This document shows, piece after piece, positions 42,611 through 54,535 of a stretch of DNA of 64,000 bases (position 1 is the first letter of the stretch; each line of letters begins with the position of its first letter). A program made the translations under genes and the position numbers. The notes beneath the pieces were generated by a model. The model did not search any database, had not been told where the DNA came from, and saw only the letters and a program-made list of their open reading frames with translations. This stretch comes from a virus. The stretch is taken from positions 1-64,000 of the IMG/VR virus record IMGVR_UViG_3300012359_000028; one strand, written 5' to 3'.

Positions 42611-43157
42611 ATGCTACCTCTTTTGAAAATATCCGATGAGCAAGAGCCTCTAATTCTTCTGCGGCACGAATCATACCTTCCGCCTGAGCACGATAAGCAT
42701 CTGCATCCCCGAACAAGTCACTGGCGTCGGTTGCTAGGAAGTACCCTCCGTCTAGTGATCGGACGGAACAAATTGGAATGTCTTTTTCGGCAACCAAATA
42801 TGCCTTGGCAAAGCGAAGTTGCCGACGATTCGCTTCGCTATCCTTAAACCCCATCGCTAGTAAGACATCCTTAACTAGCATTACGGACGCTTTCCCTTGT
42901 CGAAGAACAGTTGGTAATTTTTCAATATAATCTTGACGGGCAATAAATTCTTCGCCTGTTCGCTTATCTCTCCAAACAATTTGCAATGGCTTCTGCTGAG
43001 GAGCGGCTCTTTCGACGGTTTGAATTTGCTCTGTACGTATGCCTGGCCATGCGGCGAGGAATTTGATTTGAGCATCTTTTTCATCGGCACCTTCAAAGGG
43101 CCGAGTTATCGACTTTCCAAGTGTAGTGGAGTGATAGGTGATATTGAATGACCCCAT
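42588..43157 (-). CDS. passenger gene with C-terminal winged-helix-like domain
   Basis: RRQLR...L.....PICS....GGYFLA pattern. Confidence 0.6.
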   Translation of the reverse strand: MGSFNITYHSTTLGKSITRPFEGADEKDAQIKFLAAWPGIRTEQIQTVERAAPQQKPLQIVWRDKRTGEEFIARQDYIEKLPTVLRQGKASVMLVKDVLLAMGFKDSEANRRQLRFAKAYLVAEKDIPICSVRSLDGGYFLATDASDLFGDADAYRAQAEGMIRAAEELEALAHRIFSKEVAYETTLQN

Positions 43158-43687
43158 TTTCCAATAGTCTCCTTTGTAAGTTGCTCATATGTAATTCTCT
43201 TTCCTACAACAACATCCACGAAACTATCCAATCTCTCGAAAGTATGCCGCTGCACTCGGCCCGCATTGAGCCGAAATGTAAATTCATTCACATAGCGTCC
43301 GAGATGCTTCTTGCTGGCATGATGATAGACCCCATGCAATCCCCTCTTCATCACTGCCCAAACACTCTCAATTGAATTTGTGTGGACATCGCCACGAACA
43401 TATTCTCCAGTGATGTGCTTCACGGATTCGTGCTCAAACCCCTCTCGTTTCAAAGCAACGTAACTTCCAAAATCGTCGGTCATGATTCGAGAACCTGCCG
43501 CCACGTTCTTGTGAATCGCTGCTCGCAACTCCCGACCGCCCGTGCTTTGGATCACTTGAGCCACGACATTCCCGCCACGTTCCCGCAACCCGATGACGGC
43601 TGCTTTCTCTGACCGTTCTCTCGGCTTATGGATTCGGTCCCACATATGCCGACTATCCTCTCTTCCGCTCAAATAAGTCTCATCCAC
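43106..43687 (-). pseudogene. IS1595-family (ISXO2-like) DDE transposase, N-terminally truncated
   Basis: VDETY, IMTD, V.H...EYVRGDVHTNSIE..W...KR...G.YH..S.KHL.RY..EF.FR.N; begins directly after the TIR and lacks the Zn-ribbon and HTH. Confidence 0.85.
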
Positions 43688-44679: not shown

Positions 44680-45084
44680 TCATTCATTGCTCATCTCCTG
44701 AATGTCGAATTCGCCGAATGGCAGTCGAGTCGCGCCGGGTAGTATTGTGTTCATCCAAAATGCTCCCGGCTCATTGCAAGAGTGGATTACAATAACCCGT
44801 TGGGACCGTCGCGTCGTCAGTCGGCCATTCAGGAAATCGACAACTGGTATCGAATTGATAGTCGAATTTTTCACATTTCCCGGCCCGAGATCGAAGTCCA
44901 GGAAAATAGCATCAAACATCTCTGGAACCATCACTCGTAAATGGTCAACCGCTAGATCAGGGTCTGCCTGATGGTAGACAATCTCATGCGGCATTTTTTC
45001 GAGAAACCATTTGATGCGCTCTTCATTATCCTCGACGATATAGACGCGACCGCCCTTTCGAATTTGAATAACTGGTTTCGTCAT
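44680..45084 (-). CDS. cyclic-phosphate-processing receiver-like domain protein
   Basis: IVEDN.ER...FLDFDLG...IHS.N motifs. Confidence 0.65.
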   Translation of the reverse strand: MTKPVIQIRKGGRVYIVEDNEERIKWFLEKMPHEIVYHQADPDLAVDHLRVMVPEMFDAIFLDFDLGPGNVKNSTINSIPVVDFLNGRLTTRRSQRVIVIHSCNEPGAFWMNTILPGATRLPFGEFDIQEMSNE

Positions 45085-45788: not shown

Positions 45789-45931
45789 GCTTCTCCGCCG
45801 TCGTCAAAATCTTCATCAAATCCTTCAAACGGTTCCGGCTCGTAGGGAGGCGCAGATATTGCCAGAACTTTCTTTTTCGCCTCGCGAGTTTTCACCGTGG
45901 ATTTCTTCTTTGCTTTCTTTTTCGCTGCCAT
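45785..45931 (-). CDS. small protein with basic N-terminus and acidic C-terminus (48 aa, not in ORF track)
   Basis: AGGAGG RBS; MAAKKKAKKK...FDEDFDDGGEA*. Confidence 0.6.
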   Translation of the reverse strand: MAAKKKAKKKSTVKTREAKKKVLAISAPPYEPEPFEGFDEDFDDGGEA

Positions 45932-45950
45932 ATTACCTCCTAATTAGTAA

Positions 45951-46339
45951 GTGGGGCCATCTTTTGGACAGCCCCACCCGGCGACTAGGCTGCCAAAGCC
46001 GCAGGCGCGAACGTATCGAAGGACTCGAACGTCGGCACCAGGGACTTTAGAAACCCAATCACCTTAGCCAACATGGTGTTGACTTTTATGATTTGGTACA
46101 CTTTTATACGAGGTGTCCATTCTCGGCACGAGCCTCCCACCACTAATCTCATCTGTCGAAGCCGGGTCAGGCCCGCAGAAAAACTTCTCAGCGAGAAGGT
46201 ATTGGTGGACCTGGGGAGAGTCGAACTCCCGTCCAGTTGAGTAGCCATGGGATATTGACATGCGTAATCTGGAGAAGCCAGAAACTCCGGTAACACGGTT
46301 TGATACGCCTCCACCACTGGACTTTTTGAAATCATTGTA
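45951..46339 (-). ncRNA. ssrA: circularly permuted (two-piece) tmRNA
   Basis: Acceptor piece ends GAC-GGGAG-TTCGACT-CTCCC-CAGGTCC-ACCA (CCA end 46203); 28-nt intervening segment; coding piece starts GGGCCTG-ACCCGGCTTCGAC (46174); acceptor stem has G3.U; pk1 CGAG/CTCG; tag 46083-45985 ends ALAA*; 3' hairpin 45951-45977. Confidence 0.92.
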
Positions 46340-46345
46340 TTCGTG

Positions 46346-46374
46346 AATATAGCAAAAATCACTTCAGTTGTCAA
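46346..46374 (-). promoter_or_regulatory. sigma70-type promoter of the tmRNA gene
   Basis: TTGACA-N17-TATATT with TG upstream of -10. Confidence 0.75.
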
Positions 46375-46993
46375 GTAGTTCTTCAAAGAATTTTTCTTTA
46401 CCGAGACCGTCACACCAGAAACACACTGGCGGTTCCTCTGGGAAGTAGAGATTGTCGCCGCATATAGTGCATACGCCTATCGGTTTCGCCCATAATTCTT
46501 GATGGGTGAAGGATTCGTGTCGTACAAATCGTGCCAGTATGTCGCCGGGCAAACCGGCCCGCGTAATTTCTGTTTTACTCGTCCAGTAAACCGGGATTTC
46601 GCGATAGCATGTCGGCTCATACTCGGGCTCGATTTCGTCCCCTTCTTCATGTTGTGCTGCAATCTTTGAGCGCTCTTGTTCTTTCTTTTGGAGTTTCTTT
46701 TGCTCTTTGGCAAACTTTCGGAGTTCGGCGTCGCGTTCTTCGATTGCTCGTAAATGATTGTAGGCATCCAGCGCGGTTCTCGTGATCGTAATGCCCGGCG
46801 AAACTCCCGCAGGATAAGTCTTCTGAAGTTTCGTGAGCGTGGCAGCCTTCGTAGTGCGCCATATCCACGCCGGAGGTCCATCAGTAGAAAATCCCGAGGC
46901 ATCAGCAAGGTCCTTATCACTTTGCCACTGGTCGCCCTGACTAAACTGTGCTTCGAATTGTTTCTCATTTTCATTCCAGAGAATTCGCATCAA
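46364..46993 (-). CDS. hypothetical protein with C-terminal Zn ribbon
   Basis: KD....GF...W.T N-terminal motif; CTIC...CFWC. Confidence 0.65.
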   Translation of the reverse strand: MMRILWNENEKQFEAQFSQGDQWQSDKDLADASGFSTDGPPAWIWRTTKAATLTKLQKTYPAGVSPGITITRTALDAYNHLRAIEERDAELRKFAKEQKKLQKKEQERSKIAAQHEEGDEIEPEYEPTCYREIPVYWTSKTEITRAGLPGDILARFVRHESFTHQELWAKPIGVCTICGDNLYFPEEPPVCFWCDGLGKEKFFEELLDN

Positions 46994-47596: not shown

Positions 47597-48022
47597 TCAT
47601 GATCGAAACTCCTCTCTGACCTTCATCAAGAGTTCTCCGAGCCGATTTTTTCCATATCCGTTGTAAACGCCCCAGTATGTATCACCCCACCAGTTTTTCT
47701 CAATCAATCGTTCATTATCGGTTTTAAGTAGTAGAGTTTTCAACTCGGGATCAGAAAATTTCGCTCGTAAAACTTCAAGCATGACTGTTTCTTTGATGGT
47801 GCTCCAATCAGGTTTAAGATGTTTCAGTTTTTTGGGACTCCCGAAATGCTTTGCTTTAGCCGGAGTAATCGAACAATAAATAGCTTCTCGTTCTGAATCA
47901 TCCGTTGTCTTTTCCGACTGGTAGACATGCTCAGCCGAAGGAAGCACCATTCCTTTCCACACAATCGGCCAGCAATAGAAGTTTGATAAAAATTCGTATT
48001 GCCCGTAAAATCCATTTATCAT
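47597..48022 (-). CDS. NADAR (YbiA-like) domain protein
   Basis: FLSNFY...SAEH.YQ..K...AK..G...W...K...M...LRAKF...L...LL.T....L.E....D.YWG...G.N.LG..LM.VR. Confidence 0.9.
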   Translation of the reverse strand: MINGFYGQYEFLSNFYCWPIVWKGMVLPSAEHVYQSEKTTDDSEREAIYCSITPAKAKHFGSPKKLKHLKPDWSTIKETVMLEVLRAKFSDPELKTLLLKTDNERLIEKNWWGDTYWGVYNGYGKNRLGELLMKVREEFRS

Positions 48023-49951: not shown

Positions 49952-51160
49952 TTAGACCTTGTTACCTTCTCCAATATCGTGACCGTCCGGGTATGTCTTG
50001 TAATCAGATTCGATTTGCTTGACACCATCTGTCATCGTCGTAGCATCATAAACAACCCATTTCGGGCCGTCACCGGCTGCGTTGCCATTATCGTCAGTGA
50101 GAAACAGCGCGACATCATACGTGCCCTCTTTAGAGCCATTACGATATGCGCCGATCAGAGCATGATCCGCTGCGAACGAATTTAATTCATTCATGGCTGC
50201 TTCAAATTCCGCACTGGTCTCGGGAGTAAATAGCGCGTTCTTTACTTTGGGCTCATCCTGAAACATTTCATCCTTTCCTTTTGGATTCGTCAGAAAATTG
50301 TGTTCGAGAGCCTTTACAGCCATCAGCGGCTTTGGATAGCCTTCATTATTCCAGCCAATAACTTCTGTACTGTGAGCGGGGCCAAAATAATAGAATCGAG
50401 CAAACCAAGGTCCTCCTACTTCTTCACGACCGAATACAGCCCAGTCGATTTTCGTATCATGCGCCCTTGCAAAGTCGTCTAGCTCTTTGTCGGCTGCATC
50501 GATCTCTTCGGGAGTCGCGTCATTGTCTCCGACTGCAAAGGAAGCGCGCTGAAGCCGAGCCTCATTCTGATCATCTTTCTCGACAACTGGACAGAGTAAT
50601 GAAAGCGGCTTGACATATAGCCATGGGTCTACCTTTGGGTTTGGGTCATCACCTGCCCGAATGGCATACAAGGCAAATCGCGTCCCGTCGAGATAAATCA
50701 TAACGAGACCCTCAAGGGTTGTTGACATCGCGTGCTCCGCAGGTATACTCGGCTCTACCTGGATGTATAAATTCGGATTCGTAATGACAAGAATTACTTC
50801 GTGTCCATCGTCAATAAATCCGAGTGTTTGAAAATCAAAGGGCTTGATCTGAGCAGGCGGGTTATCGACCGGCTCGATAGCCAACATGCGAAACACGGGA
50901 GCCAGTTTCACGGCATCTTTTCCCGCATCCGGGTCAGGGATCGAATCGATACGGATGTTAAATTTAAGCCCATACGGACGCTCTACACGCGAGTCGCATG
51001 CGACGGCATTGAATTCCCCGAGAAAAGGTTGGGCTTTCGTTTTTACTTCTGTCTGAGGTACTTCCGGGATTTGTTCGCCCTGATCTTGTGCCGCCACGCA
51101 TACTGCTTGGGTCGCGAACAAGATTGCCGTAAACAGAACGGCGAGAATGTACTTTCTCAT
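49952..51160 (-). CDS. exported protein with a duplicated C-terminal domain
   Basis: GGGAG RBS; signal peptide MRKYILAVLFTAILFATQAVCVAA; repeats EIDAADKELDDFA and EFEAAMNELNSFA. Confidence 0.7.
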   Translation of the reverse strand: MRKYILAVLFTAILFATQAVCVAAQDQGEQIPEVPQTEVKTKAQPFLGEFNAVACDSRVERPYGLKFNIRIDSIPDPDAGKDAVKLAPVFRMLAIEPVDNPPAQIKPFDFQTLGFIDDGHEVILVITNPNLYIQVEPSIPAEHAMSTTLEGLVMIYLDGTRFALYAIRAGDDPNPKVDPWLYVKPLSLLCPVVEKDDQNEARLQRASFAVGDNDATPEEIDAADKELDDFARAHDTKIDWAVFGREEVGGPWFARFYYFGPAHSTEVIGWNNEGYPKPLMAVKALEHNFLTNPKGKDEMFQDEPKVKNALFTPETSAEFEAAMNELNSFAADHALIGAYRNGSKEGTYDVALFLTDDNGNAAGDGPKWVVYDATTMTDGVKQIESDYKTYPDGHDIGEGNKV

Positions 51161-51170
51161 TGTGTTCTCC

Positions 51171-51740
51171 CTATTTGATTGCGGTCGCAAGCACCGCTTG
51201 CCTGATTTCTTCTTTCTGACTGAACCGAAAAACTTTGTGACTATCCCCAAAAACATCGATCATAAAATGAATCATCTTGTTTTCGAGTTCCTGAGCATCA
51301 CTCTCATTCTGGTAGCGGCCCTCTCGTTCATATATCGCGTCTTTATCCTTCAAAAGCAGAATGTTTAGAGCCGGATAGTCTTGCTCATATTCTCGAATCA
51401 GTTCAGCGATGCCGCGCTTTAGATCATGCGGTGCATAGAAGACACTGAGCCAGATTGGAGAATCGGTCACAATGTTCTTCACACCTGCTTTCAGAAGTTC
51501 GTACTCTATATGATGCTGCTTGCCGAAAATGTAAATCTGATCGAACTGTTGAATTGGCCGGTGTTCCAGAGTCCATCCTTTCACCCATTCTTGCGCTAAC
51601 TCCGCATTGAAATGCTCAAAACGCAATTGCGAGTGAATCCATGAAGCCATATTGGATTTGCCACGGCCGGGAGCGCCAAAGAAATTGATGCGAAGTTGTT
51701 TATTAAAGAATTGCTGATCAGGCATGTGGGCATCCTTCAT
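51171..51740 (-). CDS. P-loop nucleotide kinase (NadR/AAA_28-like)
   Basis: INFFGAPGRGKS, E.VK, VTDSP, GRYQ motifs. Confidence 0.8.
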   Translation of the reverse strand: MKDAHMPDQQFFNKQLRINFFGAPGRGKSNMASWIHSQLRFEHFNAELAQEWVKGWTLEHRPIQQFDQIYIFGKQHHIEYELLKAGVKNIVTDSPIWLSVFYAPHDLKRGIAELIREYEQDYPALNILLLKDKDAIYEREGRYQNESDAQELENKMIHFMIDVFGDSHKVFRFSQKEEIRQAVLATAIK

Positions 51741-52032
51741 CGGCCATACGGTCCAGTTCGTGTTGATGTTCTGGCACTCTCATAGCCGCCAAAGCCTCAG
51801 CAGCCTCTGCACGCTTCAATAATCCAGCACATGCTGGCCCAAGGGTAAGAACAGCATCATGTTCTTGGTCATATGCCGCCAAGAGTTTATCGACCCGGCT
51901 CATGTCACCGATGAACAGTCCGGCGACGCGATTGTCTCGAATTGCCTTGATCGCTTCCTCCGTTGTTTCAACATGGATTTCTTTCTTAACCTTTCCCATA
52001 CTTGCTCGGGCGGTCTTGCTTAGTTCAGCCAT
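51718..52032 (-). CDS. hypothetical protein
   Basis: TAATG coupling to the RNA ligase gene. Confidence 0.6.
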   Translation of the reverse strand: MAELSKTARASMGKVKKEIHVETTEEAIKAIRDNRVAGLFIGDMSRVDKLLAAYDQEHDAVLTLGPACAGLLKRAEAAEALAAMRVPEHQHELDRMADEGCPHA

Positions 52033-52607
52033 TATTCACCCTTCCCTTTCTCATCTTTTTCGATTGTCTTTTTGAACAACTGTTTTGTGCTGTGATGGTA
52101 GATTACAATTCCTTCCGGTTTGGCAAAGCCCGGCACAGCATGAGAACCGCCTTCTTTCAGTTCATTAAGTATCATTGTTATAACTGAGGAATCAAAAAGT
52201 CCCTCATATAGAACCGGCACAACATGACAGCATGCCGGATAGTTGTTATTGTTCCATCGGCCGGTATTGAAAAGACTAAATCTCTTTTCAATCAGTCCAT
52301 ACCGGCGTTGGATACCAGCGCCCCACCATTCTCCAAAATGATGACCGGGGCCGAGTTGAAGGAGTTCTTCTTTGTGCTCGTGCGCCCATCGAGAGAACCC
52401 ATAATTGTCGTCAGTCGGCGTGATCCAACGGGTCCGCGAACCTGTAAGAAAGAGGCCGTCTCCGGCTCTGCCTGCGATTTGTTCGCCAATATAGATACTG
52501 GAGTTGGTGCCGTCAATTTTCTCCGTGACCGTACAGTCTCGGCTGAGCCGACCGATTTTCGGCATGGGTTCAAACTTCGGTACTTCCAAATCCATTATCG
52601 TATCCAT
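52032..52607 (-). CDS. ATP-dependent RNA ligase (Rnl2-like nucleotidyltransferase)
   Basis: Motif I TEKIDGTN, GSR, FGEWWG.GIQ, F.LFN, VPVLYEG, motif IV PEGIV, terminal FKK. Confidence 0.85.
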   Translation of the reverse strand: MDTIMDLEVPKFEPMPKIGRLSRDCTVTEKIDGTNSSIYIGEQIAGRAGDGLFLTGSRTRWITPTDDNYGFSRWAHEHKEELLQLGPGHHFGEWWGAGIQRRYGLIEKRFSLFNTGRWNNNNYPACCHVVPVLYEGLFDSSVITMILNELKEGGSHAVPGFAKPEGIVIYHHSTKQLFKKTIEKDEKGKGE

Positions 52608-53522: not shown

Positions 53523-53552
53523 ATCCTACTAGGGTTCCTACTAGTTTGTCAA
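53523..53552 (-). promoter_or_regulatory. sigma70-type promoter (leaderless) containing a CTAGTAGGA direct repeat
   Basis: TTGACA-N18-TAGGAT-N6-ATG. Confidence 0.65.
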
Positions 53553-54535
53553 GCACTAAATTTCATCGGCGCAAAAAATACTCTATCGGAATTCCCGCTT
53601 GAAAAAATTGTCCGGCCAAGGATTGCATCAATTAGTGCTCGACCTTCCTCAATACTCAATTGGAATCCGGCTGCTTTTTGATGACCGCCTCCACCTTTTG
53701 CTTGAGCTAATTTACTTGCATCAACACCCTTATGGGCTCGCAATCCAAATTGAATAAGTCCGTCTTCACGTTCGAACCATCCGATTGCAACATCTATGCC
53801 GGGCCAGTCCGCAAGTTCTCCGCCAAGTTCGCTAAAATTGGTGTTTAGCCCGTTAATGACAGCGACTTGATATTCGTGGACGAATCCTTCCTTATCGATA
53901 AAAAGAAGTTTGCCTGTCTGCGCATGACGGGTGCCTTCGCGTACATAATGTTCAATCTGGCGCAGCGCTCCGGCTCCATATTCAGCAGCCGAGTCCGATT
54001 CAATGCCTGCAACCATAAAATCCCAAACTCGAAAATCTTTTTGTACAGCCCCAAGATACGCATTGATTGCTTGACTCTTCGGCAGTTTCCAGAGCCACAA
54101 ATCGCGGTCTTCCACATAATTGACATACCAGGGGCGCGGCATTCGTGAACAATTTTCGCAGCAAGCAAAATCAGTTTCTTTAACTAGGCGACCATCATCG
54201 GGCGAATCTTTGCCAAATAGATAATCCCATGCTAATCCAGCACCACTTCGATTCATATCAAATGTAGCGAATGACAGCCCGGCAAGAACTTCCTGGGCGC
54301 TTTTATGATGGTCGAGAATGCGGAATGACTTCGCTCGGCGAGCAAGTTCACAATTTTCGAGAGAAGTGTTCCAACTAAAATCTACAACGAAAACATTTTT
54401 GCCCTCCACCTCAGCATACGGCGGCTCGACACCGTAATCCTGCGCCAGTAACGTTGCTTCAGGCCAGCGCTGGTGGGCGACATAGGCCGCGCAGAACCCG
54501 TCAGTGCAATTATTGTGATAGATGATTAAGTCCAT
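53549..54535 (-). CDS. DHH/DHHA1 phosphoesterase
   Basis: YH..C.DG, VVDFS, LDHH, SGA, DRDLW, GGGGH..AAG. Confidence 0.9.
   Translation of the reverse strand: MDLIIYHNNCTDGFCAAYVAHQRWPEATLLAQDYGVEPPYAEVEGKNVFVVDFSWNTSLENCELARRAKSFRILDHHKSAQEVLAGLSFATFDMNRSGAGLAWDYLFGKDSPDDGRLVKETDFACCENCSRMPRPWYVNYVEDRDLWLWKLPKSQAINAYLGAVQKDFRVWDFMVAGIESDSAAEYGAGALRQIEHYVREGTRHAQTGKLLFIDKEGFVHEYQVAVINGLNTNFSELGGELADWPGIDVAIGWFEREDGLIQFGLRAHKGVDASKLAQAKGGGGHQKAAGFQLSIEEGRALIDAILGRTIFSSGNSDRVFFAPMKFSA

Follow-up and report, generated by a model that had tools for sequence, protein, structure and literature searches.

A predicted circularly permuted, two-piece tmRNA gene in a small divergent family of uncultured soil-type phages

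The two-piece transfer-messenger RNA (tmRNA) of Alphaproteobacteria, of the Caulobacter type, was reportedly described by Keiler, Shapiro and Williams in 2000. Phages carry tmRNA genes as well: Buchholz et al. (2022; PMC9004378) count 402 tmRNA-bearing phages among 18,146 genomes and 133 distinct structures, of which 53 are two-piece according to ARAGORN and 50 of these 53 marine or aquatic, while a preprint (10.1101/2025.10.06.680108) reports tmRNA genes in soil Bradyrhizobium phages whose form is left unstated. Here, we describe a gene of the permuted kind on the minus strand of a 64,000-nucleotide stretch of viral DNA, positions 1 to 64,000 of IMG/VR record IMGVR_UViG_3300012359_000028, which at its full length we call the window, together with its counterparts on two related phage contigs, L101 and L107. 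Comparative analysis makes it very likely that the phage encodes a functional tmRNA of the circularly permuted (two-piece) type, whose gene belongs to a small divergent family in uncultured soil-type phages. The kind is already published and the family is a small, divergent, soil-phage one; what is distinctive is a tag that is conserved, 29-32 residues long and amphipathic in its core, besides a leader of 76 nucleotides (nt) and a tag frame without a stop over the whole length of the gene. An initial annotation, made from the letters of the window alone, had set the gene apart from familiar phage tmRNAs held to be one-piece, a view that is outdated by the 53 published two-piece structures of isolate phages and by the 96 IMG/VR loci presented below.

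In tmRNA mode, ARAGORN bore out the call, reporting a permuted tmRNA (tmRNA*) at 45894-46295 on the minus strand with the tag VNTMLAKVIGFLKSLVPTFESFDTFAPAALAA. The merged Rfam model for permuted tmRNA (RF04321, tmRNA_permuted; gathering cut-off 47 bits) matched over its full length, model positions 1-213, with 77.7 bits and an E-value of 3.5e-13 in the 64-kb window, and it gave 79.5 bits on L101 and 66.7 bits on L107 (model positions 1-175). The three lineage-specific models all remained below their cut-offs, so that the anticipated covariance-model support comes from the merged model only: beta_tmRNA (RF01850, cut-off 84 bits) reached 59.2 bits in the window, as a local match to model positions 57-183 of 331, and 46.8 and 46.3 bits in the relatives, alpha_tmRNA (RF01849, cut-off 50 bits) reached 30.3, 38.5 and 31.5 bits and cyano_tmRNA (RF01851, cut-off 70 bits) 34.7, 42 and 39.8 bits in the three family members. 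Across a 901-base stretch no Rfam family besides tmRNA_permuted was found at gathering score, and four matches were weak and sub-threshold. A free-energy co-fold of both pieces, run without any model, recovered all four segments of helix 2 along with the T-arm and an acceptor stem of 7 bp, and thereby reproduced the pairing between the pieces that the initial annotation had proposed.

Reading the sequence placed every element of that proposal where it had been described. The order is the permuted one, with T-arm, acceptor 3' strand and CCA preceding a spacer, which is followed by the acceptor 5' strand and the D-loop analogue:

46374-46346, minus strand: sigma-70-type promoter TTGACA-17-TATATT (-35 at 46374-46369, TG, -10 TATATT at 46351-46346)
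46339-46264, minus strand: leader of about 76 nt between the predicted transcript start and the acceptor piece, with a small hairpin TCTGG/CCAGA
46263-46203, minus strand: core of the acceptor piece (sequence, RF04321 match and co-fold)
46263-46234, minus strand: 3' strand of helix 2, in the acceptor piece
46230-46214, minus strand: T-arm GGGAG/TTCGACT/CTCCC, in the acceptor piece
46213-46207, minus strand: acceptor 3' strand CAGGTCC, in the acceptor piece
46206, minus strand: discriminator A, in the acceptor piece
46205-46203, minus strand: encoded CCA, 3' end of the acceptor piece
46202-46175, minus strand: intervening segment of 28 nt, presumed to be excised, with a 6-bp hairpin CTTCTC-GCT-GAGAAG, a U-run and then CTGC
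46174-46126, minus strand: 5' part of the coding piece (RF04321 match and co-fold)
46174-46168, minus strand: acceptor 5' strand GGGCCTG, 5' end of the coding piece
between 46168 and 46155, minus strand: D-loop analogue GGCTTCGAC of the GGnTTCGAC type, in the coding piece
46155-46126, minus strand: 5' strand of helix 2, in the coding piece
46125-46094, minus strand: pseudoknot 1, read from the sequence, with stem 1 CGAG/CTCG and stem 2 TGG-ACAC/GTGT-A-CCA
46083-45988, minus strand: tag frame of 32 codons, with resume codon GTC at 46083-46081 and stop TAG at 45987-45985
45977-45951, minus strand: 3' hairpin with an 11-bp stem and the loop CAAAA and without a U-run (sequence and co-fold)

Pseudoknot 1 is separated from the resume codon by 10 nt, and the 3' hairpin is followed by the ribosome-binding site and the ATG (45931) of the next gene. 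The alanine identity that had been claimed is present in the sequence, as the wobble pair G46172.T46209 (G3.U70), A46206 (A73) and the encoded CCA at 46205-46203, and G3.U70 (alignment columns 62/118), A73 and CCA are kept in 3/3 full copies.

The two relatives allowed the gene to be examined by comparison. L101 is a 44.5-kb IMG/VR contig that encodes a homologue, 34% identical, of the window protein at 49952-51256, which lies 3.7 kb upstream of the tmRNA; its own permuted tmRNA lies at the same distance and in the same orientation, between genes homologous to those that precede and follow the tmRNA in the window. L107 (IMGVR_UViG_3300021420_000022), a 92-kb contig, was recovered by a helix 2 pattern, and the tag of its complete gene (L107a), which ARAGORN miscalled, is AMRMLAKAVSFVKSLFTMPNFGMEAAASMA when read from the homologous resume codon. 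No relatives were found in IMG/VR scans with the upstream 165-residue protein and the helicase, and a fixed-distance pattern scan for relatives gave no match; three metagenome relatives of the neighbouring protein (L103-L105) end before the place of the tmRNA and neither add nor subtract. L107 also carries an orphan pseudoknot-tag-hairpin half (L107b, L107:8176-8345, plus strand) with the tag AKSILAKVASFLKSLVPALPSMDFAPQAA, located 675 bp past the complete gene and separated from it by a 126-codon gene. The pseudoknot 1 of this orphan, which has an A.C mismatch in stem 2, is closer to that of the window than to that of neighbouring L107a, and the orphan looks like a displaced original half.

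Covariation was scored on three full copies (window, L101 and L107a) and one partial copy (L107b), with the structure drawn from the window's sequence. Of 190 cells, 96.8% are paired, and 12/56 pairs are changed on both sides, a number reached by 0/500 shuffles, while slid controls gave 0-2. The two-sided changes number 2/5 in the T-arm, 1/7 in the acceptor stem, 4/17 in helix 2, 2/4 in stem 1 of pseudoknot 1 (87.5% of cells paired), 1/7 in its stem 2 (96.4% paired) and 2/11 in the 3' hairpin, where all cells are paired in four sequences (100%); every helix thus has at least one, except the closing 5-bp segment of helix 2 (0/5). The counts are small and derive from four related rows. A chance origin of this covariation appears unlikely, as the slid controls are low and the two-sided changes are spread over the helices.

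The tag provides a second line of comparison. Its frame is open from the homologous resume codon in 4/4 copies, giving 32 residues in the window, 31 in L101 (AKNILAKVAGFLKSLVPDFSFGEFAPAAMAA), 30 in L107a and 29 in L107b; indels are multiples of three, and in the two remaining frames a stop mostly appears within 5-11 codons. Substitutions at the three codon positions of the tag number 1/3/7 between the window and L101 and 5/2/9 between the window and L107b, and the pairwise ratio of nonsynonymous to synonymous substitution rates (dN/dS) over the first 19 shared codons is 0.20-0.44. Upstream of the resume codon, by contrast, the counts are even over codon positions, both between the window and L101 (5/7/4 and 9/9/10) and between the window and L107a (4/7/4 and 8/7/9), and the restriction of the third-position bias to the tag indicates that translation is confined to the tag. 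Because of the paired changes, together with the open tag frame, the in-frame indels and the third-position bias in the relatives, the gene is, as judged from these alignments, under selection and not debris.

As to the peptide itself, the conserved N-terminal core reads (M/I)LAK(V/A)x(G/S)F(L/V)KSL, and residues 4-16 have a helical hydrophobic moment of 0.44-0.50, which was matched by 36-104 of 2000 shuffles, suggesting a modest amphipathic signal in the core. This N-terminal stretch resembles membrane-targeting helices of the MinD type, and our literature search found no paper joining a bacteriophage tmRNA tag peptide with amphipathic character. The window's tag ends in ALAA, and the endings within the family are LAA, MAA, SMA (L107a) and QAA (L107b). 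Tags of 19-33 residues occur in 19/94 viral permuted tmRNAs with an ARAGORN call, and tag length alone is therefore not rare.

The promoter has 11/12 consensus matches and an extended -10 TG in a promoter scan, in which the 1-kb region contained two promoter-like sites as compared with 0.6 +/- 0.7 in shuffles. It overlaps the stop codon of the upstream gene (46366-46364, minus strand), and L101 has a counterpart, TTGACA-17-TAGATT with TG, which likewise lies where the homologous upstream gene ends; in L107, no plus-strand promoter-like site was found in the 1.5-kb region scanned. The claim that the gene has its own promoter stands for the window and for L101, and the promoter lies where the initial annotation had put it, at a distance of 76 nt, and not of a few nt, from the acceptor piece, with the transcript start predicted from the promoter sequence. 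The last ~60 nt of the leader are kept in L101 (window 46264-46320, minus strand, versus L101:15445-15505). Two small pairings in the leader, GGAG/CTCC and TCTGG/CCAGA, overlap, and each is altered on both sides in L101, the hairpin becoming TCCGG/CCGGA; an H-type pseudoknot was considered for the leader and rejected by reasoning, since the overlap of these covarying pairings allows no third loop.

The upstream boundary of the gene differs among the family members. L101 has ~300 nt of extra sequence after the promoter, including a 45-codon open reading frame in a different frame with a strong ribosome-binding site, and a 62-nt insertion directly after the conserved leader segment and before the acceptor piece. 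L107 has no leader, and a gene for recombination endonuclease VII (PF02945, 56.5 bits; L107:7000-7362, plus strand), which ends 2 nt before the acceptor piece, occupies the place of the promoter and leader found in the window and L101; it may be a mobile nuclease associated with the rearrangement in which the tag module was duplicated. Given the insertion and reading frame in L101 and the endonuclease gene in L107, processing must generate the 5' end of the acceptor piece in at least two members. The spacers of the relatives, 34 and 46 nt, each have a different hairpin, and all spacers end in CTGC in the alignment.

One degenerate pattern scan of IMG/VR (T-arm, CCA, 15-45 nt, 5' acceptor) yielded 96 permuted tmRNA loci (L005-L100), 94 of them with an ARAGORN call. 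Thirty-three of these loci were typed with Rfam: beta_tmRNA reaches its cut-off in 26 (90-173 bits), several of which adjoin tRNA clusters, the alpha model does so in one, and in six only RF04321 does (L005, L036, L038, L057, L066 and L082), as in the window's family. In a maximum-likelihood tree built from 60 distinct cores of viral permuted tmRNAs, which contains one alpha-typed lineage and no cyanobacterial one, whose bootstrap is unsettled and in which long branches can mislead, the window, L101 and L107 form a clade (100/100) with a long stem of 0.92 changes per column, sister to the beta-typed L081 (98/97) and inside the beta-typed group. The permutation point, helix 2 and the position of pseudoknot 1 directly after the closing helix match the general permuted model. 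The possibility of an independent permutation, raised in the initial annotation, is not supported, considering this general architecture, the position within the beta-typed group and beta_tmRNA being the best lineage model (59.2 bits). There is no sign of a separate permutation, and on this evidence the family probably is a fast-evolving beta-type offshoot.

The complete record is linear, 82,432 bp long and 65% complete (CheckV), the window being its first 64 kb. The window contains genes for the large terminase, a head-tail adaptor, a family-A DNA polymerase and a helicase, and the tmRNA lies deep in the interior of the genome, within its leftward early/replication arm; in view of these genes and of this internal position, the description of the gene as phage-encoded holds. 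The nearby genes also include one for a lysozyme, and the following were recorded near the tmRNA:

43106-43687, minus strand: IS1595 transposase
44680-45084, minus strand: cREC_REC, a weak match (25.4 bits, cut-off 27)
47597-48022, minus strand: NADAR protein
51171-51740, minus strand: AAA_28 P-loop protein
52032-52607, minus strand: RNA ligase (PF09414)
53549-54535, minus strand: DHH/DHHA1 phosphoesterase

The statement that the window has no smpB extends to the whole 82-kb record at its 65% completeness. Whole copies of the stretch were found in 10 soil-metagenome runs from seven studies, possibly including the source itself, and contigs of four soil DNA runs had the identical sequence with zero variants, these being DNA in which RNA ends are not visible. 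In a blastn search with 631 bp of the tmRNA region, a collection of 50,697 isolate-phage records gave no match, and the best isolate-phage identities were at most 25% for the terminase and at most 33.5% for the DNA polymerase, the hosts of the matches being mixed. When species genomes were scanned once with a 32-nt pattern from the T-arm and acceptor, no close bacterial copy was found; the scan returned a one-piece tmRNA in a metagenome-assembled genome (MAG) of Saccharibacteria and a tRNA-Ala in another Patescibacteria MAG, from which it follows that this stretch is not lineage-diagnostic, and common descent with the beta-type L002, which has the same 32 nt, was dropped as an argument for that reason. 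ARAGORN also reports a tRNA-Thr (tgt) at record positions 81860-81934 (L108:17860-17934), beyond the window and ~500 bp short of the record's end. The Rfam tRNA model gave no match there at gathering score, and the call could represent a phage tRNA that has degenerated or what is left of an attachment site.

The following working model would account for these features. Host RNA polymerase would transcribe the gene from the strong sigma-70-type promoter that overlaps the upstream gene's stop codon, and host tRNA-processing enzymes would cut the precursor, with RNase P acting before G46174 and 3' maturation at the CCA at 46203, so that the 28-nt spacer is removed; this step is modelled by analogy with the Caulobacter-type two-piece tmRNA. 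The pieces would be held together by ~29 bp, 7 bp from the acceptor stem and ~22 bp from helix 2, in the structure that covariation supports. Host alanyl-tRNA synthetase would then charge the RNA via G3.U70 and A73, and host SmpB and EF-Tu would deliver it to ribosomes stalled on broken messages, where translation would resume at GTC 46083 and add the 32-residue tag, amphipathic stretch first and protease-type ALAA last. The role would be to keep ribosomes free when host defences or phage nucleases cut RNA, which fits the RNA ligase, P-loop protein and phosphoesterase among the neighbours, and the phage possibly gives rescued proteins a fate of its own.

Several observations weigh against a functional two-piece tmRNA. 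The family consists of three phage contigs only, no RNA run is among the runs that contain the stretch, and smpB was found in none of the three records, which are 65%, 43% and 72% complete. Within the RNA, stem 1 of pseudoknot 1 has only about three weak pairs in L101 and L107a. The spacer hairpin was scored as terminator-like in a scan because TTTTTCTGCG comes after it, and such a terminator, if working, would cut the coding piece off; its 6-bp stem is weak, however, and a conserved terminator was rejected on the ground that both relatives lack the U-run. With respect to the tag, the window resumes at GTC (Val) instead of the usual Ala codon, the relatives having GCC, and a ClpXP-type degron is, by the predicted tags, not uniformly kept, L107a ending in SMA and L107b in QAA instead of LAA. 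Finally, in an RNAalifold prediction the codons for the N-terminal core and those for the C-terminal end form a long helix with each other in all four copies, and much of the nucleotide conservation of the tag may be owed to this predicted RNA helix and not to the peptide alone.

Other explanations must be considered in this light. The gene could be a passenger, a decaying copy of a host tmRNA acquired by imprecise excision or as an attachment-site mimic and idle for the phage. Phages that integrate into ssrA do carry parts of it, according to PMC9004378, the orphan tag module of L107 is non-functional, has no tRNA-like domain and has the A.C mismatch in stem 2, and the tRNA-Thr near the record end could mark an integration site. 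The gene of the window, however, is whole, lies internally in a phage genome and has a strong promoter of its own; three phages with neighbouring proteins ~34% identical keep it in place with compensatory changes and intact tag frames, and the one scan of species genomes with the 32-nt pattern yielded no close bacterial copy, all of which makes a passenger very unlikely. Less probable again is that the RNA mainly acts as a decoy that absorbs host SmpB or blocks host trans-translation, the tag being irrelevant. Such an action has been proposed for mycobacteriophage DS6A, whose RNA comprises a tRNA-like domain only and inhibits tmRNA in E. coli (PMC4131195 and PMC11915505), and, with smpB found in none of the three records, the phage RNA must compete for host SmpB. 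A decoy alone would have no need for a conserved mRNA-like half, yet pseudoknot 1, the resume region, the tag frame and the 3' hairpin are conserved, with substitutions of the coding type and in-frame indels.

The least probable alternative in our view is that the stretch is, or doubles as, a protein-coding gene. In the tag phase the window has a frame of 142 codons (45985-46413, minus strand; in the relatives, the frame lies at L101:15425-15850 and L107:7320-7658) that spans the whole tmRNA and contains an ATG at 46335-46333, 3-5 nt past the expected transcript start; the stop-free stretch 5' of the resume codon measures 110 codons in the window, 110 in L101 and 82 in L107a, as against a median of 11 and a maximum of 68 codons in 94 other viral permuted tmRNAs, and the three unrelated spacers of 28, 34 and 46 nt are all equal modulo 3, which keeps the phase. 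No coding signal was found upstream of the resume codon in the codon-position counts of the window against L101 and L107a, and on these even counts a protein-coding reading of the 142-codon frame was rejected. The changes in this part are the compensatory ones of RNA helices, the ATG has no counterpart in L101, where the 45-codon reading frame in another frame precedes the gene, and, as the three sequences are related to one another, the open frames do not count as separate events. Within the preferred reading of a functional two-piece tmRNA, the tag might, by its N-terminal amphipathic stretch, reroute every protein rescued during infection to a place or partner chosen by the phage, e.g. the membrane, and the precursor might double as a messenger, given that no stop interrupts the tag frame anywhere in the gene in any of the three members; we consider this extension unlikely, if less so than the explanations just discussed.

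What the locus adds is a set of soil phages to the published and mostly marine collection of phages with two-piece tmRNAs. The family is small and fast-evolving, is missed by three lineage-specific Rfam models and is caught by the newer merged model only, which is of use for annotation. The conserved long tag hints that phages may alter the fate of proteins from stalled ribosomes, and the position among RNA-repair-type genes fits a function in sustaining translation while RNA is cut. None of this overturns the current understanding of trans-translation.

Compared with known systems, the gene resembles the two-piece tmRNAs of the OM43 phage Melnitz and of pelagimyophages in having the permuted order on a phage genome and a tmRNA* call by ARAGORN (PMC9004378), and it resembles marine myophage tmRNAs in following directly after an early-type promoter and in that no phage smpB is reported for them in that paper. 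The reported set differs in being mostly marine or aquatic and alpha-like in the authors' phylogeny, and in Melnitz the tmRNA is joined to a glutamine riboswitch (PMC9004378), whereas the gene of the window comes from soil metagenomes, is nearest to the beta type and has a 32-residue tag. The Caulobacter type (RF01849) is the source of the working model, in which one precursor gives an acceptor and a coding piece held by pairing, but alpha_tmRNA reaches only 30.3-38.5 bits on the three family members at a cut-off of 50. Closest are the betaproteobacterial RNAs (RF01850) and the viral beta-type loci (L002, L081 and L044): the tRNA-like domain aligns locally (59.2 bits), the order of helices is the same, pseudoknot 1 abuts the closing helix and the spacer is short. 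Unlike in the beta type, where the promoter lies ~10 nt ahead of the first helix and tags of the ANDxxxALAA type have 10-14 residues, the promoter of the window is 76 nt ahead, the family's tags have 29-32 residues and the part after the window's tag is a single hairpin.

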